From: Candidatus Poseidoniaceae archaeon
GTDB taxonomy: Archaea > Thermoplasmatota > Poseidoniia > Poseidoniales > Poseidoniaceae
DNA length: 64,000 bases
NCBI GenBank assembly: GCA_943789275.1
Contig: CALSTM010000003.1
Span: 596,053 to 660,052 of the forward strand
Direction of reading: 5' to 3'
Translations under genes and position numbers: made by a program
Shown: in pieces, positions 2,157 through 34,910 of the stretch
How the letters are laid out: each line of letters opens with the position of its first letter
How positions within the stretch are numbered: the first letter of the stretch is position 1
The notes under the pieces: generated by a model
Told to the model about the DNA's origin: nothing
Databases searched by the model: none
The model's input: the letters and a program-made list of their open reading frames with translations, nothing else

Positions 2157-2399
2157 GCTGATGGCAATGAAATACACGGTATAGTTATTTTGTTGTGTTG
2201 CCGATTTAATGATTGGTCTGTTCGTTTTTCGGTTTCTTTGAGATTGACTAAACCGTCGTAGATTCAGCTCTTCTTGAACGGGGTTGAAGAGCCACTTGTG
2301 CGAAATTATAGGGTCAACTATGATAGTCAGTTCGTCGTTGGTTGGCGCATGAATGATGCCGATGGTATAGGTCACAGCCGTGTATTTGGACTAAAATCC

Positions 2400-5800: not shown

Positions 5801-8800
5801 CAGTGCATCCGGTCACAAATGCAATTCATATCATGGCCGTGAACGGATCGACCATCCCAACCGCAGGATTGAATCATCACACAAACGAAACAGGTACCTG
5901 GCTCTACTCAACCATTTCTGACCCATCAGAGGAAGAGGGATTCGGGGTTAATTTCGATATTGACTCAGATGGTAACCTGCATGTTGTTTTCCGAAGAGAA
6001 GCCAACAGTGTCACGACCCCTCACTATGACCACTTGATAATGGCCAGTCGAATAAACGGTGTTTGGCAAAACCAGACCATTGCAATCAATCTGATTAACG
6101 GTGCGTATGGACATCACTTTGACATGGCCATTGATTCACAAGATCAAATACACGTAACATATCAAGGTAACCTCAATCAAGGAAAATGGATTTGGCATGG
6201 CGTATTATCAAGTGTTAACCCAAGCAGTAGCTGGGTTTTAACTCAATTATCTACCTCAGGATTTTACCCAGCTTTGGCCGTCGATTCAAACGACAATGTG
6301 CACCTTTCTTATCACGGTGGTGCGGGCTGTCCAAGGATCAGTGGTACCAAACATACACCTCTGGAACGTGGAGTTCGACGAATCGAAACAAGCGCCACCG
6401 CCGGCAACATTCATGGGGGTTACTTCAATGAAATGACCACAGATTCCAATGATGATGTCTTTATATTTGCTTATGGGCAAGTGGTTTCCACTTGCAAAAG
6501 TTGTGACATTCGAATAACCAGAATTCAAGGTTTAGGACCAAGTCTTGCGACGAATCCGATTTTCGAGGTATCACCACCACTCCCAGACGGACTGAACATG
6601 AACTGGCACAACGGTACCATTTCTGGAACACCGACTGAAACCCACGCGAACACTACACACACCGTCACAGTGACTGCCTTTGGCGCAACCACAACTGAAA
6701 CATTCACACTTATGGTCATTGAAGCAGCCGATATTTCCTACGCAGGTTCACCGTTTACGTTCACCAAGAACACCGAAGTCGTTGGAGAAACACCAACCAA
6801 CGCTGGTGGAGCAGTCATCACATGGGCAATTCACCCGCCAGCATCTTCGCTACCAAACGGTCTCTTGTTTGGCCCATCCAACGGAACCATCTACGGTACA
6901 CCGACCACTGTGGTCTCTTCCGCCGTTACGTTCACCGTTTGGGCGAACAATTCGGCTGACAGCAATTCGACAACCATTTCGATCACCGTTCAAGACGAAG
7001 CTCCTGACATTTCGTATGCAGGTTCACCGTTTACGTTCACCAAGAACACGGAAGTTGTTGGAGAAACACCAACCAACGCTGGTGGTGCGGTAAGCACATG
7101 GGCAATTCACCCGCCAGCATCTTCGCTACCAAACGGTCTCTTGTTTGGCACATCCAACGGAACCATCTACGGAACACCGACCACTGTGGTCTCTTCAGCC
7201 GTTACGTTCACGGTTTGGGCGAACAATTCTGCCGATGATATTTCGACAACCATTTCGATTACTGTTCAAGATGAAGATGCTGACATTTCGTACGCAGGTT
7301 CACCGTTCACATTCACCAAGAACAGTCTTGTGAGCGGTGCAACGCCAACTAACGTTGGTGGCGCACCAGATGCATGGGCTATTGATCCAGAAATCTCTAC
7401 CACGATTCCAGGACTCTCGTTCAACACCGCAACGGGTGCTATCACCGGTACGCCAACAGGAGTACATTCGGCCACTATGTTCACCGTTTGGGCCAACAAT
7501 TCCGCAGGTGATATTTCGACAACCATTTCGATCACCGTTCAAGATGAAGATGCTGACATTTCGTACGCAGGTTCACCGTTCACGTTCACCAAGAACAGTC
7601 TTGTGAGCGGTGCAACGCCAACTAACGTTGGTGGCGCACCAGATGCATGGGCTATTGATCCAGAAATCTCTACCACGATTCCAGGACTCTCGTTCAACAC
7701 CGCAACGGGTGCTATCACCGGTACGCCAACAGGAGTACATTCGGCCACTATGTTCACCGTTTGGGCCAACAATTCCGCAGGTGATATTTCGACAACCATT
7801 TCGATCACCGTTCAAGATGAAGATGCTGACATTTCGTACGCAGGTTCACCGTTCACATTCACCAAGAACAGTCTTGTGAGCGGTGCAACGCCAACTAACG
7901 TTGGTGGCGCACCAGATGCATGGGCTATTGATCCAGAAATCTCTACCACGATTCCAGGACTCTCGTTCAACACCGCAACGGGTGCTATCACCGGTACGCC
8001 AACAGGAGTACATTCGGCCACTATGTTCACCGTTTGGGCCAACAATTCCGCAGGTGATATTTCGACAACCATTTCGATCACCGTTCAAGATGAAGATGCT
8101 GACATTTCGTACGCAGGTTCACCGTTCACATTCACCAAGAACAGTCTTGTGAGCGGTGCAACGCCAACTAACGTTGGTGGCGCACCAGATGCATGGGCTA
8201 TTGATCCAGAAATCTCTACCACGATTCCAGGACTCTCGTTCAACACTGCAACGGGTGCTATCACCGGTACGCCAACAGGAGTACATTCGGCCACTATGTT
8301 CACCGTTTGGGCCAACAATTCCGCAGGTGATATTTCGACAACCATTTCGATCACCGTTCAAGATGAAGATGCTGACATTTCGTACGCAGGTTCACCGTTC
8401 ACATTCACCAAGAACAGTCTTGTGAGCGGTGCAACGCCAACTAACGTTGGTGGCGCACCAGATGCATGGGCTATTGATCCAGAAATCTCTACCACGATTC
8501 CAGGACTCTCGTTCAACACCGCAACGGGTGCTATCACCGGTACGCCAACAGGAGTACATTCGGCCACTATGTTCACCGTTTGGGCCAACAATTCCGCAGG
8601 TGATATTTCGACAACCATTTCGATCACTGTGAACGACATTGCACCAGTTTTCACATATTCATCCCTCGAAGTGACATTAACCAATAATTCGGCGGTATCG
8701 CTCTTGCCAATCAGCACGGGCGGGGCGGTCACATCGTGGGAGTACGTAGGAACTGAACCACTCGGTTTGAACTTCGAAGGCGGAAATGGAACCATTTGGG

Positions 8801-11800
8801 GCACACCAACCGTTGTTCAATCGAAAACTCAATACTTGATTTGGGGGAACAATTCAGGTGGACAGCTTTTGGTTTACATGAACATCACCATTTCTGATGT
8901 GCCTGTTTCCTTGAGTTACACCTCTGACAATTACAACCTCACGCGTGCTGTCACAATGACAACGCCAATCAGTCCAGTTTACACTGGTATTGTTGATGCG
9001 TGGGGCATTGAACCTTCACCTACATTGGCGGGTCTCTCTTGGGATTCATCCACAGGTGTGATTTCAGGTACGCCAAACATCAACATGACCCGAACAGAAT
9101 ACACCGTTTGGGCAAACAATACCGGTGGTAACGTGTCTCATAAGTTCAACATCACCATCAACGAACCGATTGTGACCTTGGTCTACACTCCTGCGAGCGA
9201 AACCTTTGTTCGAGGTACGACAATCACCAACTGGCTCCCAACGGTGACCGGTGGAAACGTCGAAACTTGGGGCATTGAACCTTCAATTACGGGAACTGGT
9301 CTTTCGTTTGTCAACGGAGTGATTTCGGGTACACCGACCATCAACATGACCCAAGCCGATTACATCGTATGGGCCAACACGACCGGTGGCGAGACCAACT
9401 TTACCATCAGCATTACCATCAATGAACCGATTGTGACCTTGGTCTACACTCCTGCGAGCGAAACCTTTGTTCGAGGTACGACAATCACCAACTGGCTCCC
9501 AACGGTGACCGGTGGAAACGTCGAAACTTGGGGCATTGAACCTTCAATTACGGGAACTGGTCTTTCGTTTGTCAACGGAGTGATTTCGGGTACACCGACC
9601 ATCAACATGACCCAAGCCGATTACATCGTATGGGCCAACACAACCGGTGGCGAGACCAACTTTACCATCACCATCACCATCAATGAACCGATTGTGACCT
9701 TGGTCTACACTCCTGCGAGCGAAACCTTTGTTCGAGGTACGACAATCACCAACTGGCTCCCAACGGTGACCGGTGGAAACGTCGAAACTTGGGGCATTGA
9801 ACCTTCAATTACGGGAACTGGTCTTTCGTTTGTCAACGGAGTGATTTCGGGTACACCGACCATCAACATGACCCAAGCCGATTACATCGTATGGGCCAAC
9901 ACAACCGGTGGCGAGACCAACTTTACCATCACCATCACCATCAACGAACCTGGAGTCATCCTTGAGTACAATCCAGAAAATGTAATCGTCACAATTGGTG
10001 ACCCAATGACTGCGTTGACCCCAATTGTCAGCAACGGGAGCGTTGAGATATGGAGCATTTATCCCGAACTTGATAATGGATTGAACTTTGCAAACGGAAT
10101 CATCTCAGGAACGCCAACAAGCATTCAATCAAAACAAACCTACAAGATTTGGGCTAACAACACAGGCGGCAATACATATCACGATGTCAACATCACAATC
10201 CTTGACATCGTTCCTGAAATTTCCTACAGTCTCGTAAGCATTGACCTTACTAATGATACGACAAGCAGTGAGTTGCCTCTCTCCCCGAGTAACCTCGGCG
10301 GTCCAGTGGTGTCATGGTCGATTACGCCAGACCTCAGCCTTGGCTTGTCGTTTGACCCTGCAACCGGCGTCATCAGTGGAACACCCACTGAAGTCACAGC
10401 ACTTCGAGTCTACACCGTTACTGCAACAAATACAGGTGGAACGAGCACGACAGAGATTGAAATCACCGTTCTTGACCAAGTTCCGATGATTGCATACGTG
10501 CCTTCGGATGAAGTTCTGCTCTTGAACGAGAGTGTCCTGAACATGGTACCTGAATCCACGGGTGGAGCAATCACGGGCTGGTCAATCACACCTGAGCCAT
10601 CTGCTGGTTTGTTCTTTGACGCATCGACCGGTGTTTTCAGCGGTACGCCTACGGAGACAATGATTCGAACCCTGTACGAGATTACAGCAACAAATGATGT
10701 GGGAAGCATGACCGTTTCGGTTAACATCACCGTTGAAGATTTGAATTACAACCTCTCGCTTGGTCCGATTTATTTGCTCATTAATGAGGAAATGTTGAGT
10801 TTAGAACCGACATCAACCCTCTCTGATGCTGTCTATGAAGTCAGCCCAGATCTGCCTGATGGTCTCTTCCTTGGAGAAAGCAATGGAACCATTTGGGGCA
10901 CACCAACGGTTGGAATGCCTCTGACAAATTTCACCATCTATGCCAACAGCAGTTTGTTCAATGATGTGCTTGAAATCCAAATCGGAGTCCTAGAAGATTC
11001 AGATTCGGATGGAATGCCGAACCAACTGCCGCTTGGTTACAATCCACTCGGCGGTCTTACCGAAGACTTGGACGATGACGGTGACGGCTTCACTGATGCC
11101 GAGGAAAGCGAATGCGTTTCAGACGCATTGGATGCAGATTCAGCGCCAACCGACCTCGATGGCGATTCCATCTGCGACGCATTGGATGATGACGTCGACG
11201 GCGATGGCTTGTTGAATGATGTTGAAACAAACACCTCAACCTACGTGGATGAGAACGATACTGGAACCGACTCAATGAACGCTGACACCGACGGTGACGG
11301 CGTTTGCGATGGACCTCAAGTGCCAGCTAACGGCGGCTGCACCGCAGGACCAGATGTGTTCCCACTCGACCCTGCAGGCTCCGTTGACAGCGATGGTGAC
11401 GGCATGCCGGACACTTTGAACGGTGAATCCACCAGTTCACCACCTCTGGTCGAAGACCTCGATGACGACAACGACGCTTGGTCTGACGAGATGGAAGCAG
11501 CATGTGGAACGGACAGCGTCGATTCGAACAGTGTTCCTAGCGATGAAGACGCCGACGAAATCTGTGACAGCCTTGACACGAACCTGGACCTGCCGTTCAA
11601 CCTCACATACCCAACCGATACATTGACTGTAACATTAGGTGAAGAGATTTCAATCCTGCTTCCAAACCTCACCGGTTTGGGTGAAGTGTCTTCTTGGGAG
11701 ATTGAAGGTGAATTGCCCGAGGGATTGACCTTTGGCTGGAGTCCAGCAAGGGATGCTGCTCTTGACGGAAGTATACGTGGTACACCAACTGCAGTAATGT

Positions 11801-13092
11801 CTGCGACCGTCTTTACCATCTGGGCGAACAACTCTGCATACAGTCAATCGTTTGAACTTACGATTACTGTTCTCGAAGACCTCGTTCTTCCAAATGATGA
11901 TGGTGATGCTGGTGTTGATGAGGATGATGAGGACACCCCGCTGCTCCTCACTTGGGGTTACATCTGTTGCCCGTTGCTTCTTCTGCTTCTGCTGTCCGTC
12001 TTTATGTTGTTCTTCATCGGTGAAAAACAAGTCGTTATCGATGCTGAACCTTCAAACACTTTTGTAAAACCAGTTAGCAAAAGAGGCACAGGTACTCAAG
12101 AAGATCCTTTCGTATTGAAATCAATTGGAGGTCTCAAACCCGGTGGAAAAGCGAACAGCCATGAACGAATTACATTCGTCGGCTTGACAGTAGAGAGTAT
12201 TGAAATAATCGATTTGGAGCAAAAGAACAATGGAAATAAATTTTCCATGTTCATGCTCAAGCCAGCCTCCAGTGAAACGGGTGTTCGAATGCTTGGTATC
12301 GACGAGAATGTAGACACCACCATTGGCATGAGATTCGATGACAGTAAAGAAGAATCTTCCGTTAAGGGCGATGAATATTCAGCGTTGTTGAAAATTGGCA
12401 AATCCAGTGTTTACTTTTCTTGGACGGTGACGGTTAAACCGAGCAAGGTCAACAAAGTGAAGCCTAGAGAACCAATAGTGACGATTAAATCGACACAATC
12501 CATGTCCAAATCGGGTTCAATGAGTTCTTCTGAACCAAAGTCGTCCGTGGAGGAGAAGGCTGCAAAGGATGCTGAAGCTAAGGCTGCAAAGGATGCCAAA
12601 GCGCAAGCAGATGCGGATACTAAGGCGGCAAAGGAAGCCAAAGCGCAAGCAGATGCGGATGCTAAGGCGGCAAAGGAAGCCAAAGCGCAAGCAGATGCGG
12701 ATGCTAAGGCGGCGAAGGAACTCAAAGCACAAGCGGATTCAGAAGCCAAAGCAGTTAAAGAAGCCAGAGCCAAAGTCGACGAAGATGCTGCAGCTGTTGC
12801 CAAAAAGGCAGAAGAATTGGAACGTATCGCAAAGCGGGCTAAAAGTATTGATTTCGCTACGCTCGGTGTGGCTAACATCGGTGAAAAAGATGACCTGCAA
12901 GCCATCAAGGGCGTTGGTCCGTTCATCGGAGAAAAGTTGAATGCACTCGGCATCTTTACGTTTGAGCAAGTCGGAAACATGACGCCTGAAATTGAAGAAC
13001 AGGTCAACAAAGCGATTGAATTTTTCCCTGGCCGCGTTAAGCGAGACCAGTGGGCGAAGCAAGCAAGGCAACTTCATCATGATAAAAAGTGA
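2785..13092 (+). CDS. Body of giant secreted, membrane-anchored adhesin-like protein 1 (3435-aa ORF, ~3,600 aa with the N-terminal segment). It contains beta-propeller-like repeats, RCC1-like repeats, tandem Ig-like (He_PIG or cadherin-like) domains, TSP3-like Ca-binding repeats, a single TM helix, and a cytoplasmic tail with AK-rich repeats and an HhH-like domain.
   Basis: A single 10.3-kb ORF. The RCC1 signature HTCAILDNGSVSCWGxGxxGQLGNGG occurs seven times. LPxGLxFxxxxGxIxGTPT Ig-like units number more than 20. The acidic repeats include DxDxDGxxD (DTDGDGVCD). The hydrophobic helix is LLLTWGYICCPLLLLLLLSVFMLFFIG. The C-terminus is IKGVGPFIGEKLNALGIFTFEQV...FFPGRVKRDQW. Confidence 0.85.
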   Translation: MMLQDRSGNTTQSLLILKTSCILPTSAYKDDTNALTQDLKYATCASSCASASSWSNITLDATGFVGERTSIAVDSNDGVHISYTDNTNNALKYTMCSSSCGTASSWSNVSVDDIGTGDTKPTDIAIDSNDAVHIAYHWQGISNLNIRYATCTTSCASASSWTNTSGISLSNIHDVALAIDSNDALHIAGYDYDNKDIIYLACTSSCTSTSSWSNISAVTTGEVGARLSIAVDSTNNPHISYQAGAWAVHVGLPLGYATCTSSCLTASSFWTHGTVHSGSAVYTYGTSIAVNHNNDSVHIVHGNLFSKFYYLGSDTAPYTVSPDLPSGLSLDWSSGKISGTPRELSTSTIYTITARNAHGSDTATLTISVNAPPSLSYDLGTGNSTSVYSNKQVAAGYQHTCAILDNGSVMCWGENGHGQLGNGGTGDEHIPVWVDLGTDRTAVAITAGYRHTCAILDNGSVSCWGQGIFGQLGNGGTSQQTSPTLTSSLGTGRTAVAITAGYSHTCVILDNGSVSCWGIGNKGHLGNGGTSQQNSPTLTSSLGTGRTAVAISAGQYHSCAILDSGSVSCWGYGIEGQLGNGGTSQQNSPTLTSSLGTGRTAVAISAGGIHTCAILDNGSVSCWGEGSKGRLGNGGTSQQNSPTLTNSLGTGRTAVAISGGAKHTCAILDSGSVSCWGDGAIGILGDGGTSDQHSPTLTSSLGTGRTAVALENGHAHTCAILDDASMKCWGNDNNKQLGNGATGSTGDPPVLVSGSHTWDSTMISGSSSTVYLVQNALMSSLSPTLDAGFGAPTSCNQTGLPSGLLLSTTCVLSGTPTTLGSTTLTITPSNAEGNGSAAIFIVNVNASGGSITINTTSTEGGVGSAISDITMSYTHTASIPNWVSGVTNSTINPAPSIPAGGGSKLSIDSGLNGDIAAVYSVERTGATSANLSLLYKWNGAWTESTIDSSVDTEVPSVAIDRQGALHIGYVDKDNAKLKYATNASGSWVVETLGDAATHQFAQTAISVHPVTNAIHIMAVNGSTIPTAGLNHHTNETGTWLYSTISDPSEEEGFGVNFDIDSDGNLHVVFRREANSVTTPHYDHLIMASRINGVWQNQTIAINLINGAYGHHFDMAIDSQDQIHVTYQGNLNQGKWIWHGVLSSVNPSSSWVLTQLSTSGFYPALAVDSNDNVHLSYHGGAGCPRISGTKHTPLERGVRRIETSATAGNIHGGYFNEMTTDSNDDVFIFAYGQVVSTCKSCDIRITRIQGLGPSLATNPIFEVSPPLPDGLNMNWHNGTISGTPTETHANTTHTVTVTAFGATTTETFTLMVIEAADISYAGSPFTFTKNTEVVGETPTNAGGAVITWAIHPPASSLPNGLLFGPSNGTIYGTPTTVVSSAVTFTVWANNSADSNSTTISITVQDEAPDISYAGSPFTFTKNTEVVGETPTNAGGAVSTWAIHPPASSLPNGLLFGTSNGTIYGTPTTVVSSAVTFTVWANNSADDISTTISITVQDEDADISYAGSPFTFTKNSLVSGATPTNVGGAPDAWAIDPEISTTIPGLSFNTATGAITGTPTGVHSATMFTVWANNSAGDISTTISITVQDEDADISYAGSPFTFTKNSLVSGATPTNVGGAPDAWAIDPEISTTIPGLSFNTATGAITGTPTGVHSATMFTVWANNSAGDISTTISITVQDEDADISYAGSPFTFTKNSLVSGATPTNVGGAPDAWAIDPEISTTIPGLSFNTATGAITGTPTGVHSATMFTVWANNSAGDISTTISITVQDEDADISYAGSPFTFTKNSLVSGATPTNVGGAPDAWAIDPEISTTIPGLSFNTATGAITGTPTGVHSATMFTVWANNSAGDISTTISITVQDEDADISYAGSPFTFTKNSLVSGATPTNVGGAPDAWAIDPEISTTIPGLSFNTATGAITGTPTGVHSATMFTVWANNSAGDISTTISITVNDIAPVFTYSSLEVTLTNNSAVSLLPISTGGAVTSWEYVGTEPLGLNFEGGNGTIWGTPTVVQSKTQYLIWGNNSGGQLLVYMNITISDVPVSLSYTSDNYNLTRAVTMTTPISPVYTGIVDAWGIEPSPTLAGLSWDSSTGVISGTPNINMTRTEYTVWANNTGGNVSHKFNITINEPIVTLVYTPASETFVRGTTITNWLPTVTGGNVETWGIEPSITGTGLSFVNGVISGTPTINMTQADYIVWANTTGGETNFTISITINEPIVTLVYTPASETFVRGTTITNWLPTVTGGNVETWGIEPSITGTGLSFVNGVISGTPTINMTQADYIVWANTTGGETNFTITITINEPIVTLVYTPASETFVRGTTITNWLPTVTGGNVETWGIEPSITGTGLSFVNGVISGTPTINMTQADYIVWANTTGGETNFTITITINEPGVILEYNPENVIVTIGDPMTALTPIVSNGSVEIWSIYPELDNGLNFANGIISGTPTSIQSKQTYKIWANNTGGNTYHDVNITILDIVPEISYSLVSIDLTNDTTSSELPLSPSNLGGPVVSWSITPDLSLGLSFDPATGVISGTPTEVTALRVYTVTATNTGGTSTTEIEITVLDQVPMIAYVPSDEVLLLNESVLNMVPESTGGAITGWSITPEPSAGLFFDASTGVFSGTPTETMIRTLYEITATNDVGSMTVSVNITVEDLNYNLSLGPIYLLINEEMLSLEPTSTLSDAVYEVSPDLPDGLFLGESNGTIWGTPTVGMPLTNFTIYANSSLFNDVLEIQIGVLEDSDSDGMPNQLPLGYNPLGGLTEDLDDDGDGFTDAEESECVSDALDADSAPTDLDGDSICDALDDDVDGDGLLNDVETNTSTYVDENDTGTDSMNADTDGDGVCDGPQVPANGGCTAGPDVFPLDPAGSVDSDGDGMPDTLNGESTSSPPLVEDLDDDNDAWSDEMEAACGTDSVDSNSVPSDEDADEICDSLDTNLDLPFNLTYPTDTLTVTLGEEISILLPNLTGLGEVSSWEIEGELPEGLTFGWSPARDAALDGSIRGTPTAVMSATVFTIWANNSAYSQSFELTITVLEDLVLPNDDGDAGVDEDDEDTPLLLTWGYICCPLLLLLLLSVFMLFFIGEKQVVIDAEPSNTFVKPVSKRGTGTQEDPFVLKSIGGLKPGGKANSHERITFVGLTVESIEIIDLEQKNNGNKFSMFMLKPASSETGVRMLGIDENVDTTIGMRFDDSKEESSVKGDEYSALLKIGKSSVYFSWTVTVKPSKVNKVKPREPIVTIKSTQSMSKSGSMSSSEPKSSVEEKAAKDAEAKAAKDAKAQADADTKAAKEAKAQADADAKAAKEAKAQADADAKAAKELKAQADSEAKAVKEARAKVDEDAAAVAKKAEELERIAKRAKSIDFATLGVANIGEKDDLQAIKGVGPFIGEKLNALGIFTFEQVGNMTPEIEEQVNKAIEFFPGRVKRDQWAKQARQLHHDKK
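3960..5010 (+). repeat. Seven RCC1-like (beta-propeller blade) repeats of about 150 bp each, encoded within giant gene 1.
   Basis: Recurring xHTCAILDxGSVxCWGxxxxGQLGNGGTSQQNSPTLTSSLGTGRTAVAIxAG. Several copies share long identical nucleotide runs (for example acggttcagtttcctgttgggg). Confidence 0.75.
6724..8635 (+). repeat. Seven tandem 273-bp (91-aa) Ig-like domain repeats. The last five (7271-8635) are nearly identical at nucleotide level.
   Basis: The protein unit DADISYAGSPFTFTKNSLVSGATPTNVGGAPDAWAIDPEISTTIPGLSFNTATGAITGTPTGVHSATMFTVWANNSAGDISTTISITVQDE occurs five times. Spurious antisense and alternate-frame ORFs recur with an exact 273-nt period (7266, 7539, 7812, 8085, 8358) and identical translations. 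Confidence 0.9.
9163..9945 (+). repeat. Three near-identical tandem repeats of about 261 bp (87 aa), each encoding an Ig-like domain.
   Basis: EPIVTLVYTPASETFVRGTTITNWLPTVTGGNVETWGIEPSITGTGLSFVNGVISGTPTINMTQADYIVWANTTGGETNFTI(S/T)ITIN occurs three times. The nucleotide copies are visibly identical. Confidence 0.85.
12590..12720 (+). repeat. About three tandem copies of a 60-bp repeat encoding the Ala/Lys-rich unit AKEAKAQADADAKAAK in the cytoplasmic tail of giant protein 1.
   Basis: The string gcaaaggaagccaaagcgcaagcagatgcggatgctaaggcggca repeats three times with a 60-nt period. Confidence 0.8.
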
Positions 13093-13177: not shown

Positions 13178-13501
13178 ATGAGAGGGGACGCCGTAGGTAT
13201 GCCTCTCTTTCAATCGGGCCACTCTGCTGTGTTGAACAGAAAGTCCATCAAGTCAATTTGGCTTGCAGTTTTGATGGTTTCAATGTCGCTTTCTGTTGGC
13301 ATCGTTGAATTGAACCGGACACCGTTGGTAGATGCCATTGGTGTAGCAAGTGTTGGAGCAGGCTGTGCGTTTATCACTCGGGCCAGCGGCGAGGCAATCT
13401 ATGTCGATCCGGTCAACGGTTCGGATGCTTGGGACGGCACCTGGTCGTGTCCAAAAGCAACACTTTCCGATGCTCTGAACGACTCCATTTCAGAACGATG
13501 A
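13178..13501 (+). CDS. N-terminal signal-peptide segment of giant locus 2. It ends at a stop and continues in frame +1.
   Basis: The signal peptide ...KSIWLAVLMVSMSLSVGIVELN matches that of gene 1. YVDPVNGSDAWDGTWSCPKATLSDALNDS is the usual N-terminal lead-in of right-handed beta-helix proteins. The continuation (ND)EIVLYSGRYHENVTVDG lies in the next frame from about 13479. Confidence 0.5.
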   Translation: MRGDAVGMPLFQSGHSAVLNRKSIKSIWLAVLMVSMSLSVGIVELNRTPLVDAIGVASVGAGCAFITRASGEAIYVDPVNGSDAWDGTWSCPKATLSDALNDSISER

Positions 13502-16500
13502 AATCGTACTGTACAGCGGGCGGTATCACGAAAACGTCACTGTTGATGGCAAGGACAACCTTCTGATTCGTGCAGCCGATGGAGCCCGTGTTGTCTTTGA
13601 CGGTACTCGAAGCATTACTGAAGATTTAGGTGGTGTTTGGGGTGCAGCCGACAGCGATGGAATCCAAGAAGTCACTTTGCCTGTTGATGGCTGGCAACTG
13701 TTCCTTGCCTACGAAGAACAAGTTCCTGCTCGATGGCCAAATGCCCAATTCTCTGATGAAACGGTCTTCAATCGTTCGTACTGGGCTGAAGGCACATTGA
13801 CCGGTTCAAACAATGCCTACACGCAAGGCTGGTTGACAGATGCTGGTCCTGAAACAGGTGTTCACACAGGCCTCAATGAAACAATTAACGCCACAGGCCT
13901 CGACCCTGAAGGGGCTATTGCGGTGATGAACCTCGGTTCGTTCCGCTCCAACAGCCGTGTCATCACCGATTGGAATTCGGCCAACGGGACGTTTGCATAC
14001 GATGGCACTGGCGTAGGTTGGAAAACCAAGCATCACGCTTACTTCCTTGAGGGCAAGCGAGAACTCATCGATGTCGATGGTGAATGGTGGTTCAACAATG
14101 CAATCAACCGCCTGCATTACAAAACGCCAAGCGGGCAGAATGCAAACAATTTGGATTTGCGTGTCAAGGTACAACCGTTTGCGATGAGCGTTGAAAACTC
14201 CGACGGCGTGACCATCCAAGGCCTCGATTTCTTTGGAACGACGGTCAACTTCAACGAATGCGATGGATGCAGTTTCACCAATTCGACCCTCGAATATCCA
14301 AGCACCTCAAAGCGTGGATTGGGTATTGCCGGCGAATCAGAAGATGACCGTTGGATGACACGTTTCTATCGTTCAACCAACTCGTTTGTCGACAACATTT
14401 CCATCACCAACACCGACGGTGGCGCTCTTGAATTCCAAGGGTCTGCGGGTCAGTCGCACAACAACACGGTGAACAATTCCTACTTCCACGCCATCGACTG
14501 GTCAGCTGCCGACCAGAAAGGACTGATGGTCACAATTTACGAGGGAGGCCGAGACATGTACTTCACCAACAACACCGTTCACTTGACCGGGGCTTCATCC
14601 GTACTCTCCATTGGTGATGCGCCCAAGGTGTTCTACAACGAAGTCTGGGATGTTGGGCATTTGCAAACTGATGGCGCTGTTGTTCAGATCATGCAAGGTG
14701 AGGCCCCAGGTGCTGAAGTTGCTCACAACTGGATTCATGACATCATCAAGTACGGTGCCCGGTTTGATGCACCCATTGGAGAAGCGGGAGAAGGCCGGAA
14801 TGGAACCATGCATCACAATGTCATTTGGAATGTAACGGGCGGTTTGATGGTTAAGGGGGACTATCACGACGTCCACAACAACACGGTGTTCAATTCCTCA
14901 GATGGCAAAAATGACATCATTGCCCTCACCGATGGCGAGATCAACAACAAAAATTCGACGTTTCACCGCAATGCGGTGGATAAGATGGCCGACCATCGCT
15001 CAGGCTCATGGTCGCTTTATCCACTTCCCGCTGGGACGTATTGGAACAACTGGAACGGCTACGTCAACACCACGGATACGGTTTGGAATCAACTGGTTGA
15101 CCCTGCCAATTACGATTTCAGACCGAAGACCAACTCCCATCTTGACAACATGAGTGCGGGTGCATACGATGCTGGTGTGAGCAATCCGTGGACGGCCGGT
15201 ATTTCTTGGACATACACGACGCCCGATGCACCGGTCGAAGGGTGTATGCTCGATTATGCTGACAACTACGATGCAGACGCCACGCTATCAGACGGCTCGT
15301 GCTCCTTCGCATCGTATACGCCACCGGCCACGCTCGACCTCCGTCTCCATCTTGACCCAACCAACAGCAGTTCCTACAGCGGCAGCGGCACCAACGTCGC
15401 TGACCTTTCTGGGTTCAACAACTACGGAACCGTCGCCGCCGCTGGACCGACATGGGACGGCGATTTCACACGCTTCTCCTACGATGGGGCGTGCACTGGC
15501 TCGACCCCGAACCTGGTTTGCGATGAGATCGAAGTTTCTGACTCAACGAGCTTGCGCCCGGGCGGAAACGACTGGTCGGTATCAGTTTGGTTCAACGCCT
15601 CAACGCACCAACACAGCGTGATACTCGGCGCCTTCGACGACGGAGGGGCAGCAGTGGATGTTGGATGGGCCATCCGAATGAGAGCATCAGGTGGCATCTA
15701 TGCAAATGTGGGAACCACTTCCAACAATTCGGCCGCATGGACGTCAGAAGCATCCATCGATACGGACCGCTGGTATCACGTGGTCTTGGTTGCAGACCCG
15801 GGAAATACCCTCAGACTCTATGTTGATGGGCAAAACGTCGGAAGCGGTTCCTTGTCTGGAAGTGGAGCCCTGCGCAATGTAAGCAACAGCCTCTTCATCG
15901 CCTCCTACAACGGCGGTGAATATTCTCAGACCTTTGATGGACAAGTTGGTTCCGTCATGGCCTTTGCCGATGCACTCAACGCCACCACCATCAATCAAAT
16001 CTACAATGCAAGCAAGGGTGTGTACAGCAACACGACCACCCTGTCCTTCCCTCAATCTTCACCGACCTTGCTCCTCGGTCAAACATACAGTTTCCCCATG
16101 ACTGTCGCCAACGGTGAGATCACGACGTCCTATTCGCTCACGGGAACCTTGCCAAGCGGCATGAATTTCGAATCGAGCAACGGTACGATTTGGGGAACGC
16201 CAACGGCGGCTATGTCAACCACGAGCTACACCGTGACGGCCAACAACTCAGCCGGCACCTACTCGACCTCGTTCTCGTTGACATCGCAACATGCGGCACC
16301 GTACGATTTGGCCTACGCGCCAGAGAACATGACCCTTGAGAAGGGTACGGCCATGACGACCAACACGCCGAGTGTGAGCGGGGGCGCCATCACATCTTGG
16401 GAAATCAACCCCTCCGTGCCAACTGGACTTTCCTTTAGCACCTCAACCGGTGCCATCAGTGGTACGCCTTACGTGTTGCAAACAACAGCAACCACGTACA

Positions 16501-19500
16501 CGATATGGGCCAACAATTCAGGCGGAAATGCTTCAGCACAGGTCAACATCACCATCAACGATGAAGTGCCGATTATTTCCTATTCGTATGATGACATTAC
16601 CGGTACCAAGAGCGTGGCCATCAGCCCCCATTCTGGTCCAACTACGAGCGGTGGGACCATCACCTCATGGGAGATTTCACCATCACCAGGTTCTGCGTTC
16701 CACTTTAATTCCGCAAATGGCTACATCAGCGGAACTCCGGGGATTCTTCTGGCTAGAACCCAATACACCATTTGGGCCAACAATTCAGGTGGTTCGTCCG
16801 TTGCCTATGTCAACGTGACCATCAACGATGCAGCGCCGAACGCGTTGGGTTATTCTCCAGAAAATATGACACTCGAGAAGGATACAGCGATGACGCCGAA
16901 CCTTCCTTCGGTCAGTGGTGGAACCATCACGTCATGGGAAATCAGTCCTTCTCTGCCGAGCGGTCTGACATGGGGGGCCTCGGATGGGAAAATCAGTGGA
17001 ACACCCGCCGTTCTGCAAACGACGACGGTTACGTACACGATTTGGGCCAACAACTCAGGTGGTTCAGATTCCGCTCAAGTGAACATCACCATCAACGACC
17101 AACTCGCATCTGCAACCTATCCTTCAACCGTTGAAGTATCCAACGACCGAGCGATGACGACGGTCTCGCCGACCGTCACCGGTGGAGCGGTCATCTCGTG
17201 GGTCATCGTGCCTTCACTCTCCTCAGGCCTCAATTTCGGTAGTAGCAACGGAAGCATCTGGGGCACGCCAACAGGATTGTTGGAGAACGCCACCTACACC
17301 GTCTATGCGAACAACAGCGGCGGTTCAACCAGCATTACCTTCACGCTCGGGCTCAACTGGACGCTGACGCCAAGTGCCGAGGGTGCCTTCATCACCCGCA
17401 ACAGTTCCATTGCCAGCGACATCACGTGGGAATGGGATTACGATCCGCTTGAAGCTCAGAACCTTTCATTGGTGACTGGAGAATGGAACACCTGTGCCCT
17501 TGATAGCAATCAAAACGTGTTTTGTTGGGGACGAAACGGCAACGGTCAAATCGGCAACGGACAAACTGGAACGTCTGGTTGCGGTACATCAGGCCACAAG
17601 TGCAAGGACATTCCAACAGCAACGAACGATTTGGGCTCGGACGTGATCTCCCTTGCCTTTGGCCACCAGCATGCATGTGGCTTGCTTGACACTGGTGCCG
17701 TGAAGTGTTGGGGCCGAAACAATGCAGGGCAACTTGGAACCAGCGGTGGAGACAAGGATACGCCTCAAACCATCAATCTCGGGTCAGGGCGAACCGCTAC
17801 GAGCATCTACGCCGGTGGCCACTACACCTGCGCCATCCTCGATGACGCCTCCGTCAAGTGCTGGGGGGAGAATGGGAACGGTCAACTCGGTATTGGTTCA
17901 AACTCGAACGCCAACACACCGACCACCATTAACACCCTCGGGTCAGGTCGCACGGCTATTTCTTTAGCAACCGCCATGAGTGCAGTCTGTGCCCTCCTCG
18001 ATGACGGTTCAGTCAAGTGTTGGGGAGCCTCCGCAAATGGCCAGTTAGGCAATGGGGGTACCAGTTCAAATCTGAAGAGTCCACCTGCATCTGCAATTAA
18101 CCTCGGAACCGGCCGTACTGCAAAAGCCATCACAGGTGGCGAATCCCATTTCTGCGCCATCCTCGATGACGATTCCATCAAGTGTTGGGGCAATGGATTC
18201 AATGGGAAACTAGGAACCGGGACAACTTCCCACAGATCAACACCAACCTCAACCAGCGGAAGTTTCGCTACAGGTCGCTATGCGGTCGCCATTGACGCTG
18301 GCTACGATCACACCTGTGCCATTCTCGATAACGGCCAACTCACATGCTGGGGTTCTGATTCTGATGGCCAACTGGGTAACGGCGCTACCACGGGTACGAA
18401 ATCATCGATTCAATCCACAACCGTCACTCTTGGGTCGGGACGAACGGCCATTTCGCTTTCTGCAGGTGGAGAGCACACCTGTGCGCAACTGGACAATGGA
18501 CAACTCAAGTGCTGGGGGAATCGAGCAGACGGTCAAGTTGGCGACAACGGGAATTTCAACAATCCGTCCGATCGCACGAGCCCTTCCTCCGTATCCAACA
18601 ACAACCACGGCGGATATACCTATCTCAATACGGGCGTCATGCCTTCTTCCGCTGTTACTGGCGCTACCTGCGAGATCTCGCCTTCCCTCCCAACCGGCCT
18701 CAGTTTGACCGCCGGCACCTGCACCATCACCGGCACACCGACCGCTACAGCCAGCAACGCCACCTACACCATTTGGGCCAACGTTTCCGGCACATCGTAC
18801 AGCGGTCAAATCTGGCTTGAAGTCGGTTTGAATGCACCGGACATTTCCTATTCGTCTTCGACCTATACCTACACCAAGGACATAGAAATTTTCACGCTCA
18901 ACCCAACCAACGTCGGTGGCGAAGTGACAACTTGGGCCATCAACGCAACGTTGCCATCAGGCCTTACATTCGAGACCAGTAACGGTACAATTTGGGGCAC
19001 ACCGGACACGATTACGGCATCAACCACCTACACGGTATGGGCGAACAATTCCGCTGATTCAGATTCCTTCACCATCACGTTCACCGTAAACGATGCTACT
19101 CCGAATTTCTATTACGGCAGCGCAAGCGGTGGAGGCGCACACACACTTGTCCTCTATCTGGATCAGACCATGAATCCACTCACGCCGACCCAGGCATCCG
19201 GGGGTGGAGCGATCACTTCGTGCAGCAGTTCACCATCACTGCCTTCTGGGCTGTCGTTGAGTTCAACATGTGTCCTTTCAGGAACACCTGATGCAACCGC
19301 TACCGGGGCCTTCTACACCATCACAGGAACCAACACAGGCGGTAGCGATACAGCATCGTTGTACATCGAAATCCGCTCCTATGGTGGAACATTGAGCGTG
19401 ACACCAAGCAACACTGAAGGCAGCGTGAACAGTTCCATCTCAGACATCACGATGTCCTATGCGCATCAAATCAGCAACTACGGTTGGACATCTGGTGTAA

Positions 19501-22500
19501 GCAACACGACCACGACCCTCAGCAATAATTTCCTAACCGCAGGTGGAACGCACCTGCTCGGCATTGATTCGGGCGATCAAGGCGAGATGGTCGTTGTCTA
19601 TGCACATAACGATACGAGTTCCGCCAGTGGCACCTACAGCTTGGCCATGATGTACCGCTGGGGCGGAACATGGACTGAAACCATTCTCGACACCGGCACA
19701 GATACGGGGTATCATCCATCGGTTGCCATCGATCGTCAGGGCGCAATCCACATCGCCTACATCGATGATCACAACGACGAACTTCGTTATGCTACCAATG
19801 CTTCAGGGTCGTGGGTCTTCACAACCTTGGGAAGTTCAACCTACGACAACGATGACGGACGTGGAACGGCGATTGTCGTTCACCCAATTACAGATGCCGT
19901 TCACATTGTGACAACGATCAACGATAACACCTATCGTGATTTACAATATCACACCAATGAAAGTGGTTCTTGGGTGAATGAGACCATCACCAATACGCTC
20001 TCGGATGAAGGTCATGACCCTGCTATGGCGATGGATGGCGACGGAAATCTCCACGTCGCTTACTATTGCGACGATGGTTGTAGCGATTTGCGTATGTCCA
20101 GCCGAATCAATGGCGTTTGGCAAAACGAAACGGTTGCGAGCACCCTTAACATTGGAAACGATCCTGACATTGCCATCGATTCACAGGGTACGATTCACAT
20201 CGTGTCACAGTACCTCAATACCAAACGTATCTATCTCCATTCCGGTACGCCAGGAAGTTGGACTGAACAAACAGGGCTCTCAGGAGGAAACGCTCACTGG
20301 CCTGTGGTATCGGTTGATTCAAATGATGCTGTCCACATCTCCTATCATTTTGGAAACACACAAAAAGATGTGATGTACATGACCAACGCTTCTGGCTCTT
20401 GGTCAACAGCGTCCATGATTGAAGGATACGGTGGCTGGGGCAGTGAAATGGTCATCGATGCCAACGATGACATCTTCATTCCGAACGTCGCTCCAGGAAT
20501 AACAGAGATCCAATTGACCACAGTCAAGGGTTCAGGACAAGGTTTGACAGCCCGTCCAACCTATGACATTGCACCGATGCTTCCTGACGGTTTGATCATG
20601 AACTGGCGTAATGGAACCATTTCGGGCACACCAACAGAAGCCCTTGCCAACACAACCTTCACCGTCACAGTCACCGCCCTCGGAACCACCACCACATCGG
20701 CCTTCACGCTCTTCATCACCGGCGCTCCCGGTGCTATCGCTTACAGCGACATCTCAGGGACAAAGGGTACGGCCATCACCCCCGTCACACCGTCCATCAC
20801 CACCAACGGCACGACCGGTAGCGTGACCTCGTGGACCATCAGTCCAACTTTGCCAAGCGGGCTTTCATTCGGTACGAGCAATGGAACGATTTGGGGTACG
20901 CCAACAGTGGTTGTTTCCGGAGCGGTGTTCACGATTTGGGCGAACAACTCGGTCGGGTCCAAGTCAACAACGGTCAACATCACTGTCAATGATGAAGCAC
21001 CTGACATCTCTTACAATCCAGACTGGTTTGTTTTGACCAAGGGCACTGTCATGTCACCAACAGCGACACCAACCAATACAGGTGGTGCGATTCCATCGGG
21101 CATTGTCGACTCTGGAAGCAGTCTTGGTAGTCACACCTCAATCGCCCTTGATTCGAATGGATACAAGCATATTTCCTACTATCATGCCACCAATAAGGAC
21201 CTCATGTATGCAACCGATAAGAGCGGTTCTTGGGTCACCACTTCGATTGATACATCTGGAATTGTTGGCCATTACACCTCCATCGCCATTGATTCCAATG
21301 ATGATGTTCACATTTCCTACTATGATTCCACCAATGGCGACCTCAAGTATGCAACCGATAAGAGCGGTTCATGGGTCACTACTTCGATTGACACCTCTGG
21401 AATTGTTGGCCATTACACTTCCATCGCCATTGATTCCAATGACGACGTGCACATTTCCTACTATGACACCACCAATGGCGACCTCAAGTATGCAACCAAT
21501 AAGAGCGGTTCTTGGGTCACCACTTCGATCGATACATCTGGGACTTCGATTTTTAGCTCTTACACCTCCATTGGCATTGATTCCAATGATGATGTTCACA
21601 TTTCCTACTATGATTACACCAATGGCGACCTCAAGTATGCGACCGATAAGAGCGGTTCTTGGGTCACCACTTCGATTGATACATCTGGAATTGTTGGCCA
21701 TGACACCTCCATCGCCATTGATTCCAATGATGATGTTCACATTTCCTACTATGATTACACCAATGGCGACCTCAAGTATGCAACCGATAAGAGCGGTTCT
21801 TGGGTCACCACTTCGATCGATACATCTGGAAATGTTGGCGCTTACACCTCCATCGCCATTGATTCCAATGATGATGTGCACATTTCCCACCAAGATTTCG
21901 GGAATGGCGACCTCAAGTATGCAACCGATAAGAGCGGTTCTTGGGTCACCACTTCGATCGATACCTCTGGAAATGTTGGCGCTTACACCTCCATCGCCAT
22001 TGATTCCAACGATGATGTGCACATTTCTTACTATCACATCACCAATACCGAACTCAAGTATATCGGTCTTGATTCTTCTTCGAATGTGCTTGGCTATTCG
22101 GTCAGTCCAGCCCTACCTGCAGGATTGAGTTTGGATTTGGGTACGGGTGAAATTTCAGGCACACCAACTGCGCTTTCAACCAACACGACATACACGATAA
22201 CGGTACGCAACTCTGGCGGTACTAACACAACGACGATCACAATCGAGGTTCTCGACCAGTTGCCGACCATTGCTTACTCGCCAGAGAACTTGACGCTGAC
22301 CAACAACACGGCCAGCACCGATTTGCCGCTGACTGCAACGGTCACGGGTTCGGGGACGATCACCTCTTGGGCGATCAACGCAACCTTGCCTGCTGGCCTC
22401 AACTTCGGAACCAGCAACGGTACGATTTGGGGCATTCCGACCGTGCTCCAAACAACGGCAACAACCTACACGGTTTGGGCCAACAACAGCGGTGGTTCCT

Positions 22501-23309
22501 CCTCAGCTACGGTGACCATCACGATCAACGACGAGGCACCAGGTCCATTCGAGTACAACCCAGAGAACAACACGCTGACGAACAACACCTACGTGCATCT
22601 TGAGCCTGACTTCATCAACATGACAACGGGCAACGGCAGTTCTTGGTCCACCGCACCAGCGGGTTATCAATTGACGAGAACTGATTGGCCGAATGAACCG
22701 TGCCTCAATCATACCTACAATGGCACAACTTATGTCTCATATAATTCCAAATTGCACGGTTACGGTATTGCCAACAACACGTTATGGCTCATCAACAATA
22801 CCATCCAAGGTGTCGGTTGTTACACGTACTCTAAATGGCCCTCAGGCACTGGTTACTCGGAAGGTCTTAGCCAAATGTACGGGACATCGCTGTATTTCAT
22901 TGGTAAAGATGGTTCGGATCGAAAGTTGTACGGCTACGGTATGGAAAATGAAACCGTTTGGGTGGAGAGTACTGCGGAACCCCATGTATGGAGCATGCTG
23001 GTTGACGATGTCATGTACTTTTATGGCGAAACGGGTAACAGCGGGTATGAACTCCACGGTCACAACCTGAGCAACGGCACCACTTGGATGCTGGACGATA
23101 TTTACTCTGGCTCAGGAAGTATCACTGGGCCGGCTCTAGGACAGAATTGGCCGGTCTTGGTGGGATCGACATTTGTGTTTGTGGCAGTCTTCAGTAACGG
23201 TAGTACCTACAGTCGTGAGACATGGGCGCACAACATCAGCAACGGGACATCTTGGCGCCTCTCAATCGTATATGATGCATACCACAGCTGGCGCTCAGGT
23301 GATTGGTGA
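13479..23309 (+). CDS. Main segment of giant locus 2. It contains a pectin-lyase-like right-handed beta-helix, a LamG/ConA-like lectin domain, Ig-like domains, RCC1-like repeats, YATDKSGSWVTTSIDTSG...IAIDSNDDVHISYYD propeller-like repeats, and kelch-like repeats.
   Basis: The open frame extends upstream of the listed TTG (13677) to a stop at about 13476. It shows PbH1-like beta-helix rungs (NNTVxxS..., NxIHDIIKYGARFD). The LamG-like block is WSVSVWFNASTHQHSVILGAFDDGG...RLYVDGQNVGSGS. RCC1 repeats lie at about 17470-18560. Seven tandem 135-bp repeats lie at about 21100-22080. Confidence 0.75.
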   Translation, partial: TTPFQNDEIVLYSGRYHENVTVDGKDNLLIRAADGARVVFDGTRSITEDLGGVWGAADSDGIQEVTLPVDGWQLFLAYEEQVPARWPNAQFSDETVFNRSYWAEGTLTGSNNAYTQGWLTDAGPETGVHTGLNETINATGLDPEGAIAVMNLGSFRSNSRVITDWNSANGTFAYDGTGVGWKTKHHAYFLEGKRELIDVDGEWWFNNAINRLHYKTPSGQNANNLDLRVKVQPFAMSVENSDGVTIQGLDFFGTTVNFNECDGCSFTNSTLEYPSTSKRGLGIAGESEDDRWMTRFYRSTNSFVDNISITNTDGGALEFQGSAGQSHNNTVNNSYFHAIDWSAADQKGLMVTIYEGGRDMYFTNNTVHLTGASSVLSIGDAPKVFYNEVWDVGHLQTDGAVVQIMQGEAPGAEVAHNWIHDIIKYGARFDAPIGEAGEGRNGTMHHNVIWNVTGGLMVKGDYHDVHNNTVFNSSDGKNDIIALTDGEINNKNSTFHRNAVDKMADHRSGSWSLYPLPAGTYWNNWNGYVNTTDTVWNQLVDPANYDFRPKTNSHLDNMSAGAYDAGVSNPWTAGISWTYTTPDAPVEGCMLDYADNYDADATLSDGSCSFASYTPPATLDLRLHLDPTNSSSYSGSGTNVADLSGFNNYGTVAAAGPTWDGDFTRFSYDGACTGSTPNLVCDEIEVSDSTSLRPGGNDWSVSVWFNASTHQHSVILGAFDDGGAAVDVGWAIRMRASGGIYANVGTTSNNSAAWTSEASIDTDRWYHVVLVADPGNTLRLYVDGQNVGSGSLSGSGALRNVSNSLFIASYNGGEYSQTFDGQVGSVMAFADALNATTINQIYNASKGVYSNTTTLSFPQSSPTLLLGQTYSFPMTVANGEITTSYSLTGTLPSGMNFESSNGTIWGTPTAAMSTTSYTVTANNSAGTYSTSFSLTSQHAAPYDLAYAPENMTLEKGTAMTTNTPSVSGGAITSWEINPSVPTGLSFSTSTGAISGTPYVLQTTATTYTIWANNSGGNASAQVNITINDEVPIISYSYDDITGTKSVAISPHSGPTTSGGTITSWEISPSPGSAFHFNSANGYISGTPGILLARTQYTIWANNSGGSSVAYVNVTINDAAPNALGYSPENMTLEKDTAMTPNLPSVSGGTITSWEISPSLPSGLTWGASDGKISGTPAVLQTTTVTYTIWANNSGGSDSAQVNITINDQLASATYPSTVEVSNDRAMTTVSPTVTGGAVISWVIVPSLSSGLNFGSSNGSIWGTPTGLLENATYTVYANNSGGSTSITFTLGLNWTLTPSAEGAFITRNSSIASDITWEWDYDPLEAQNLSLVTGEWNTCALDSNQNVFCWGRNGNGQIGNGQTGTSGCGTSGHKCKDIPTATNDLGSDVISLAFGHQHACGLLDTGAVKCWGRNNAGQLGTSGGDKDTPQTINLGSGRTATSIYAGGHYTCAILDDASVKCWGENGNGQLGIGSNSNANTPTTINTLGSGRTAISLATAMSAVCALLDDGSVKCWGASANGQLGNGGTSSNLKSPPASAINLGTGRTAKAITGGESHFCAILDDDSIKCWGNGFNGKLGTGTTSHRSTPTSTSGSFATGRYAVAIDAGYDHTCAILDNGQLTCWGSDSDGQLGNGATTGTKSSIQSTTVTLGSGRTAISLSAGGEHTCAQLDNGQLKCWGNRADGQVGDNGNFNNPSDRTSPSSVSNNNHGGYTYLNTGVMPSSAVTGATCEISPSLPTGLSLTAGTCTITGTPTATASNATYTIWANVSGTSYSGQIWLEVGLNAPDISYSSSTYTYTKDIEIFTLNPTNVGGEVTTWAINATLPSGLTFETSNGTIWGTPDTITASTTYTVWANNSADSDSFTITFTVNDATPNFYYGSASGGGAHTLVLYLDQTMNPLTPTQASGGGAITSCSSSPSLPSGLSLSSTCVLSGTPDATATGAFYTITGTNTGGSDTASLYIEIRSYGGTLSVTPSNTEGSVNSSISDITMSYAHQISNYGWTSGVSNTTTTLSNNFLTAGGTHLLGIDSGDQGEMVVVYAHNDTSSASGTYSLAMMYRWGGTWTETILDTGTDTGYHPSVAIDRQGAIHIAYIDDHNDELRYATNASGSWVFTTLGSSTYDNDDGRGTAIVVHPITDAVHIVTTINDNTYRDLQYHTNESGSWVNETITNTLSDEGHDPAMAMDGDGNLHVAYYCDDGCSDLRMSSRINGVWQNETVASTLNIGNDPDIAIDSQGTIHIVSQYLNTKRIYLHSGTPGSWTEQTGLSGGNAHWPVVSVDSNDAVHISYHFGNTQKDVMYMTNASGSWSTASMIEGYGGWGSEMVIDANDDIFIPNVAPGITEIQLTTVKGSGQGLTARPTYDIAPMLPDGLIMNWRNGTISGTPTEALANTTFTVTVTALGTTTTSAFTLFITGAPGAIAYSDISGTKGTAITPVTPSITTNGTTGSVTSWTISPTLPSGLSFGTSNGTIWGTPTVVVSGAVFTIWANNSVGSKSTTVNITVNDEAPDISYNPDWFVLTKGTVMSPTATPTNTGGAIPSGIVDSGSSLGSHTSIALDSNGYKHISYYHATNKDLMYATDKSGSWVTTSIDTSGIVGHYTSIAIDSNDDVHISYYDSTNGDLKYATDKSGSWVTTSIDTSGIVGHYTSIAIDSNDDVHISYYDTTNGDLKYATNKSGSWVTTSIDTSGTSIFSSYTSIGIDSNDDVHISYYDYTNGDLKYATDKSGSWVTTSIDTSGIVGHDTSIAIDSNDDVHISYYDYTNGDLKYATDKSGSWVTTSIDTSGNVGAYTSIAIDSNDDVHISHQDFGNGDLKYATDKSGSWVTTSIDTSGNVGAYTSIAIDSNDDVHISYYHITNTELKYIGLDSSSNVLGYSVSPALPAGLSLDLGTGEISGTPTALSTNTTYTITVRNSGGTNTTTITIEVLDQLPTIAYSPENLTLTNNTASTDLPLTATVTGSGTITSWAINATLPAGLNFGTSNGTIWGIPTVLQTTATTYTVWANNSGGSSSATVTITINDEAPGPFEYNPENNTLTNNTYVHLEPDFINMTTGNGSSWSTAPAGYQLTRTDWPNEPCLNHTYNGTTYVSYNSKLHGYGIANNTLWLINNTIQGVGCYTYSKWPSGTGYSEGLSQMYGTSLYFIGKDGSDRKLYGYGMENETVWVESTAEPHVWSMLVDDVMYFYGETGNSGYELHGHNLSNGTTWMLDDIYSGSGSITGPALGQNWPVLVGSTFVFVAVFSNGSTYSRETWAHNISNGTSWRLSIVYDAYHSWRSGDW
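21100..22080 (+). repeat. About seven tandem 135-bp (45-aa) repeats, YATDKSGSWVTTSIDTSGxVGxYTSIAIDSNDDVHISYYDxTNGDLK. The units are BNR- or propeller-like.
   Basis: The periodicity is visible in both the protein and the nucleotide sequence. Several copies are nearly identical. Confidence 0.8.
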
Positions 23310-25891: not shown

Positions 25892-25942
25892 TGACGCTCA
25901 AGACGTTCACAATTTCGGCGAGCAATAGCGGCGGTTCAGTCA

Positions 25943-33121: not shown

Positions 33122-33130
33122 GGGGTCCCC

Positions 33131-34906: not shown

Positions 34907-34910
34907 TCAA

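Follow-up and report, generated by a model that had tools for sequence, protein, structure and literature searches.

Is the giant gene that begins near position 13,199 of the window, a 64,000-nucleotide stretch of archaeal DNA, really interrupted at positions 13476-13503, and if so does the cell recode it, switch it on and off or lose it, or does the interruption exist in the assembled sequence alone? The N-terminal ORF of this gene (giant locus 2) lies in frame 2, encodes a signal peptide plus about 60 more residues and ends in …CPKATLSDALNDSISER-TGA (start at 13178 or 13199, stop at 13499-13501), and the body, which begins with TTPFQNDEIVLYSGRYHENVTVDG…, lies in frame 0 and is open directly after the TGA at 13476-13478 up to 23309. 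Between the two stops the frames share 20 nt (13479-13498), or 26 nt if both stops are counted, and joining frame 2 to frame 0 takes a +1 shift, i.e., the DNA has one surplus base. The coordinates, the overlap of about 23 nt and the direction of the shift that a first-pass annotation had given are therefore correct. The join that it had proposed, …LNDSI-QNDEIVLY…, is off by one residue: DNA alignment identifies the surplus base as A13492 in TTTC[A]GAACG, between TC and the next codon, and deleting this base yields …LNDSISNDEIVLY… (…DSISNDEIVLY…). A13492 falls outside the TTT run, which is the longest run at the site. The overlap of the frames is not due to chance, because conservation across all 84 orthologous loci extends over the 66 frame 0 codons that precede the first possible start (TTG at 13677). 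Judged by the names of its protein hits, the window belongs to a Poseidoniaceae (Marine Group II) archaeon.

Coordinates of the features at giant loci 1 and 2 (positions in the window).
Feature	Position	Strand	Remarks
N-terminal ORF, locus 1	2298..2870	+	Ends …VVHIAYFSL-TAA; signal-peptide Met at 2400
Body of giant locus 1	2785..13092	+	Frame 1
Extra C, locus 1	2864	+	AGC[C]TATAAG
Alternative ATG for locus 2 N-terminal ORF	13178	+	
N-terminal ORF, locus 2	13199..13501	+	Signal peptide and first part of predicted β-helix lead-in; ends TGA 13499-13501
Body of gene, locus 2	13479..23309	+	Frame 0; predicted β-helix glycoside-hydrolase-like domain, then RCC1, Laminin_G_3 and He_PIG repeats
Extra base A, locus 2	13492	+	Missing from L043, L044, L085 and L108 (TTTCGAACG) and from 84 orthologous loci
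Window-specific extra base, GCAT[A]CC	23281	+	L104, L105 and L106 lack the base and read through
Window-specific extra base, GGT[C]TAC	23461	+	Second +1 shift; sibling contigs read through
Rest of same gene	23432..33121	+	Four ORFs with ~9 further single-base indels (three-frame reading)

The ortholog set comprised 84 loci, 41 from a scan of one genome per species and 43 from JGI metagenome contigs, and at every one of them (84/84) the junction is crossed by a single tblastn segment in one frame. The junction peptide of the orthologs, …L[ND][DE]S[SVI][SA][NDS]DEI[VI]L…, varies exactly in the three to four residues at the site. Close relatives of the window were found among contigs with names typical of short-read assemblies (we judged the platform from the names): L043 (OBPB01000644), with 99.1% nucleotide identity over 5 kb in which A13492 is the only 1-nt indel, L085 (96.9%), L044 (93.7%) and L108, whose N-terminal protein is identical to that of the window. 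All four read GAC TCC ATT TCG AAC GAT GAA (DSISNDE, with TTTC-GAACG) in frame where the window has …ATT TC[A] GAA CGA TGA, i.e., the lesion is missing from independent assemblies of the same or a near strain. The first-pass annotation had raised a shared regulatory recoding or phase-variation mechanism and had named orthologs without any shift as the observation that would speak against it; this is the observation made at 84 of 84 loci.

Programmed +1 ribosomal frameshifting at AUU-U or CGA-UGA would produce the full-length secreted protein and might regulate its level. It would account for overlapping ORFs from which a +1 shift restores a conserved protein, and for an upstream ORF that ends in an in-frame UGA and so superficially resembles the prfB site, yet no shift occurs in any of the 84 orthologs or in any of the four contigs from the same or a near strain, sibling contigs carry both +1 and +2 versions, and a slip at AUU-U would leave the protein one residue shorter than every ortholog. 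The mRNA at the site reads GAC UCC AUU UCA GAA CGA UGA, in which CGA is unable to re-pair in the +1 frame, and inspection of the locus 2 site revealed neither a shifty stop of the CUU-UGA type nor a slippery motif nor a Shine-Dalgarno-like (GGAGG-like) stimulator upstream. RNA structure at the site is nothing unusual (z = -0.05), an Rfam scan returned no family there and a tRNA scan returned nothing relevant. We consider the probability of recoding to be vanishingly small.

The 100-aa product of the locus 2 N-terminal ORF (start at 13199) is recorded in exactly this form on four long contigs (L104, L105 and L106 among them) that bear Flye-style names and stem from different ENA analyses, which excludes plain random error at 13492; the protein look-up gave no exact record of the 107-aa form that starts at 13178, and none of the contigs recovered through it is identical to the window. 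Sequence at the site was compared among six sibling long contigs, which come from different samples and bear Flye-like names (contig_N or scaffold_N), five of them chosen through the frameshifted product itself so that L110 is the only unbiased sample. Three distinct out-of-frame strings occur at this one spot: ATTTCAG (+1) in the window, L104, L105 and L106, TTTCAGC (TCC-TTTCAGCAACG, another +1 form) in L107, and ATTTCAGC, which reads TCCATTTCAGCAACG (+2), in L110. Assemblies from different samples, at least four of them, share the extra A, which is linked with SNPs (13402T, 13411G and 13429T) that are missing from the in-frame contigs; no in-frame junction was recovered in long-read contigs. 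All three strings can be written as column-wise mixes of ATT-TCG, which is observed, and TTT-AGC, which is hypothetical, when the two are aligned with gaps as [A]TTT[C][A]G[C], such that one observed haplotype (ATTTCG) and one predicted haplotype (TTTAGC) would account for every form. A search of the fetched loci and proteins, of IMG/VR contigs and of the protein database gave no instance of the predicted haplotype TTT AGC ('DSFSND').

At giant locus 1, where the window carries an extra C, both parents of such a mix are observed. The window reads TAC TTC AGC CTA TAA there (…YFSL, stop), and its 190-aa N-terminal product is on record from two contigs. Sibling long contigs show two haplotypes that are in frame at this site, haplotype Y, AGCTATAAG (TAC TTC AGC TAT AAG, …FSYK…), in L088-L092 and in proteins P0231, P0232, P0234 and P0236, and haplotype L, AGCCTTAAG (TAC TAC AGC CTT AAG, …YSLK…), in L109 and L110 and in proteins P0227, P0235, P0238 and P0240. 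If gaps are allowed and CTT is set as C-T-(gap)-T over TAT as (gap)-T-A-T, their union is the CTAT of the window (AGCCTATAAG, +1) and their intersection is the TT of L087 (AGCTTAAG, -1), i.e., each lesion results when the two in-frame haplotypes seen here are merged with gaps. In-register homologous recombination of CTT and TAT can generate CAT, TTT, CTT or TAT only and yields neither of these forms, so they are products of alignment and consensus, not of biology. The lesion is missing from independent assemblies (L088-L092 and L110 are in frame at the locus 1 site), and the union form was seen again in the contig of a second sample, from which it follows that merge artefacts can repeat across samples of one population. 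We infer that a common process underlies the locus 1 merge and A13492, and that a second haplotype exists at 13492.

Taken at face value, the length variants could also reflect phase variation, a hypermutable on/off switch at the 5' ends of giant genes that might serve, for example, in escape from viruses or grazers. Variants of different length do co-exist in one population (0, +1, +1' and +2 at locus 2; -1, 0 and +1 at locus 1), and both sites lie near the 5' ends of surface-protein genes. The known slipped-strand mechanism, however, is unavailable, as neither site has a homopolymer or short tandem repeat: Tandem Repeats Finder (TRF) reported no tandem repeats in 13300-13700, and AGCCTATAAG at locus 1 is likewise repeat-free. 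Moreover, the variants are not changes in the number of a repeat unit: in the assemblies, those at locus 1 are what a gapped alignment of two in-frame haplotypes gives as union and intersection, and those at locus 2 would be of the same kind. An alignment algorithm produces such forms and no known mutational process does, and many more indels are scattered elsewhere in the gene. We judge a switch of this kind to be highly improbable, and give an equally slim chance to repeat-independent hypermutable spots whose -1, 0, +1 and +2 variants would switch giant secreted glycosidase or adhesin genes in the Marine Group II population.

The remainder of the gene is affected in the same manner. Relative to three sibling contigs there is no indel in 13501-23280, and the window-specific extra base at 23281 then breaks the frame and creates a false stop, such that 23309 is a false gene end. 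Deletion of 13492, 23281 and 23461 opens 4193 codons from 13199, the siblings read through 23281 and 23461, and we conclude from these two results that locus 2 and the four ORFs that follow it up to 33121 are one gene of ~6,600 codons; the body ORF of the siblings measures 4091-4563 aa from the same start. Further indels map near 25790, 25845, 25960, 27290, 27345, 27410 and 30430, with a compensated pair near 27440-27460, all in the part that encodes He_PIG repeats, and three +1 shifts fall within 250 nt. In total the gene carries ~12 single-base indels in the window, nine of which are +1; the frame path was read by eye, and the intact orthologs P0247 and P0300 were unusable as guides since their domain order differs beyond ~630 aa. 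At least seven of the ~12 indels are missing from a sibling contig that has just 20 SNPs relative to the window in 14 kb, a ratio of indels to SNPs that is implausibly high for real evolution. No indels at all were detected between the window and two contigs with names in the style of short-read assemblers over 30770-44270 (13.5 kb, of which ~11 kb are housekeeping genes), and the neighboring housekeeping enzymes match Pfam models over essentially the full model length. Long contigs from related populations break the same gene at many other positions. Genes in the neighborhood include a T2SSE/T2SSF (archaellum/type IV pilus-like) cluster.

Taken together, comparison of the sequences makes A13492 most likely a consensus artefact, introduced when variants of two strains that live side by side were merged by a long-read metagenome assembler. 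The window would stem from a long-read metagenome assembly, and the giant surface-protein genes of this archaeon differ between co-existing strains. Where strains differ by several adjacent bases, the consensus step would align the variants with gaps, and if columns were kept from both variants the consensus would gain or lose one base relative to each real variant; A13492 would be a merged column of this kind. The real gene would then read …GAC TCC ATT TCG AAC GAT GAA… (DSISNDE), or, in the predicted second in-frame variant, …TCC TTT AGC AAC…, and would be a single unbroken gene of ~6,600 codons (13199-33121) whose product would be secreted and carry a glycosidase-like right-handed β-helix domain at its N-terminus, with no frame shift in the cell. 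The split is present in the assembled sequence and most likely absent from the cell.

Two simpler sources of error were considered and set aside. Basecalling errors at methylation motifs (the insertions lie in TCGA and AGCT) were dropped in view of the 13.5 kb free of indels and of a platform that is probably HiFi, and plain homopolymer read error does not fit, since of the four insertions mapped, three (13492, 23281 and 23461) do not extend a homopolymer. Judging from contig names, the assembly was probably made from PacBio HiFi reads with Flye --meta in a coastal time series. Sidhu et al. (2023; PMC10108472) describe a set of 30 PacBio Sequel II HiFi metagenomes for which Flye 2.8.3 was run with --meta --pacbio-hifi, and from the contig names we infer that this project may be the source of the window. 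One neighboring protein in the window is identical to a JGI marine metagenome protein.

A real one-base insertion in one local lineage, which would have cut the signal peptide from the body and recently turned the gene of a dispensable surface protein that varies between strains into a pseudogene, is the most serious alternative, though still an unlikely one. It would explain why the identical lesion, on a SNP haplotype of its own, recurs across samples, in four or more assemblies that were probably built from accurate HiFi reads, and the giant surface genes do sit in a strain-variable island (L109 lacks locus 2 entirely). On the other hand, three lesion forms at one spot would take at least three independent indels within 10 bp in one population, and for its counterpart at locus 1 a gapped merge of two haplotypes is demonstrated. 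The insertion would also leave the body without a start codon for 62 codons and thereby destroy a 20-kb gene in a ~2-Mb genome. No nonsense codon or other decay is found in the 4193 codons that open once three bases are removed, and the body protein is 90% identical to that of an ortholog over the first ~530 residues past the junction. A merged consensus remains our preferred reading of A13492. As observations that bear on it from the other side, an extra A shared together with linked SNPs is also what a real allele of a single lineage looks like, and HiFi reads are accurate, such that plain read error is unlikely; the merge would need strains to be mixed in every affected sample.

Once the frame is restored, the junction falls in the lead-in of a predicted β-helix fold. 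A profile of the orthologs (A2) matched the parallel β-helix protein 9rx2 (3.7e-20), 3vst (chain annotated as Xylosidase; 3e-16, query 33-143 to chain 3-113, which is the N-terminal lead-in) and the glycoside hydrolase BT_1002 (5mqp; 1.1e-13) in the PDB, the ortholog P0040 matches DUF1565 above the Pfam cut-off at positions 2-42 (about the first 42 positions), and orthologs show weak matches to the GH141_M insertion domain; the restored N-terminus of the window by itself gave nothing above threshold against Pfam. Homology at the level of profiles thus predicts a right-handed parallel β-helix glycoside-hydrolase-like domain for the N-terminal ~600 aa of the restored protein, and the claim of the first-pass annotation that the junction lies in the N-terminal lead-in of such a domain is supported by the matches to 9rx2, 3vst, 5mqp and DUF1565. 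The signal peptides of the two giant loci share 20/27 residues and 55/81 nt, i.e., they are, as it had noted, more alike at the protein than at the DNA level. The two shifts do not, however, occupy the same structural position, as had been proposed: that of locus 1 lies 154 codons past the conserved signal-peptide Lys, inside a '…VHIAY..D…LKYA.C.SSC' repeat, and that of locus 2 lies 81 codons past it, in the β-helix lead-in, and beyond the signal peptide the N-terminal regions of the two loci are unrelated domains. The shared direction of the shifts likewise carries no weight, since nine of the ~12 indels in the gene are +1. Of the alternatives that had been offered, the first, recurrent error in these genes, is the one that the evidence favors.

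The gene is most likely intact in cells, and no biological weight should be placed on the split. One gene of ~6,600 codons is annotated here as six ORFs, and in long-read metagenomes recurrent frameshifts in strain-variable giant surface genes can mimic recoding or pseudogenization. Merged-haplotype indels should be checked first before pseudogenes, recoding events or 'split' giant genes are counted in such MAGs.

Several known systems resemble locus 2 in part. The prfB frameshift, conserved across bacteria, relies on the shifty stop CUU-UGA-C and on a Shine-Dalgarno-like stimulator that lies 3 nt upstream of it; as at locus 2, a short upstream ORF that ends in UGA overlaps a long +1 ORF, but none of the three (motif, stimulator, conservation) is seen here. 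In Sulfolobus solfataricus, the α-L-fucosidase gene fucA1 is expressed by a programmed -1 shift on an A-AAA-AAT heptamer, as confirmed by protein chemistry, and there too the annotation splits an archaeal gene of glycoside-hydrolase-like type into two ORFs that overlap, whereas the shift at locus 2 is +1, has no slippery heptamer and is absent from contigs of the same strain. Bacterial contingency loci likewise display frame-changing length variants near the 5' end of surface-protein genes, but they need a homopolymer or short tandem repeat tract, which neither of our sites has. With the β-helix hydrolases of the GH141 and GH120 type (we take 5mqp to belong to GH141 and 3vst to GH120) the predicted domain shares homology at the profile level that includes the lead-in interrupted by the junction, although the likeness is remote and the domain here heads a multi-repeat protein of ~6,600 aa. 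The closest parallel is found in the consensus errors of collapsed strains, whose gap-tolerant polishing is a recognized source of indels in long-read metagenome assemblies: there, too, single-base indels are confined to strain-variable or repetitive genes, depend on the assembly, are missing from short-read contigs and equal gapped merges of two real haplotypes. Nothing essential sets locus 2 apart from these errors, and what is unusual here is that the same merged form appears in several samples of a time series.

What had been taken as giant locus 2 and the four ORFs downstream of it are one gene of ~6,600 codons, which in the window is split by ~12 single-base indels. At two positions where the window carries an extra base, 23281 and 23461, the sibling contigs (long metagenome contigs of related strains) show no frame break and read through.

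Coordinates of features in the window
Feature	Position	Strand	Description
Tail of giant gene begun upstream of the window	64-591		helix-hairpin-helix/Cdd1-like module
Locus 1	6322-6379		frame difference from several siblings
Locus 1	9176-9441		in-frame length polymorphism
Locus 1	12556-12579		in-frame length polymorphism
Locus 1	12604-12645		in-frame length polymorphism
Locus 1 tail	12808-13076		similar to upstream giant gene's tail
Locus 2 gene, whole	13199-33121		one gene, split by indels
Locus 2 gene, downstream ORF	23432-25891
Locus 2 gene, downstream ORF	25943-27331
Locus 2 gene, downstream ORF	27459-30521
Locus 2 gene, downstream ORF	30431-33121
Archaellum/type IV pilus-like cluster	52711-56880	-	T2SSE ATPase (508 aa) adjoined by a pair of membrane proteins, 544 aa and 339 aa long, each with a T2SSF domain

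Locus 1, the giant surface-protein gene preceding locus 2, also varies among the sibling contigs. A repeat unit of ~266 nt is present in 0, 1 or 2 copies, and the C-terminal part carries additional indels of 24 and 42 nt. Compared with several siblings, the window further differs by -2 and -1 nt spaced 57 nt apart, a local change of frame over 19 codons that leaves the overall frame intact and that may be either a further lesion from merged haplotypes or a real divergent segment. The locus 1 tail shares 74-80% DNA identity with that of the upstream giant gene, whose module matches Pfam PF11731 (E = 2e-7); against Pfam the locus 1 tail itself scores only weakly (E = 0.069). Secreted giant proteins would not be expected to end in a domain of this kind.

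In the related strain L109 (ERZ10646685 contig_21403), compared with the window from 13178 onward, a locus 1-like gene is present and is followed by PALP and Cys_Met_Meta_PP genes in place of locus 2; the giant genes therefore lie in a strain-variable island.

Some public short-read contigs, seen through their proteins P0001 and P0013, finish in …LSLIHI. These residues are what the Nextera adapter CTGTCTCTTATACACATCT encodes when translated, which indicates that untrimmed adapter persists at the contig ends. Other long-contig assemblies, from sister populations, likewise interrupt the orthologous giant gene, at numerous differing positions that are not conserved (proteins P0324, P0331, P0334, P0341, P0342 and P0009-P0011). 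Broken giant genes are therefore a general problem of this gene family across public long-read metagenome data.
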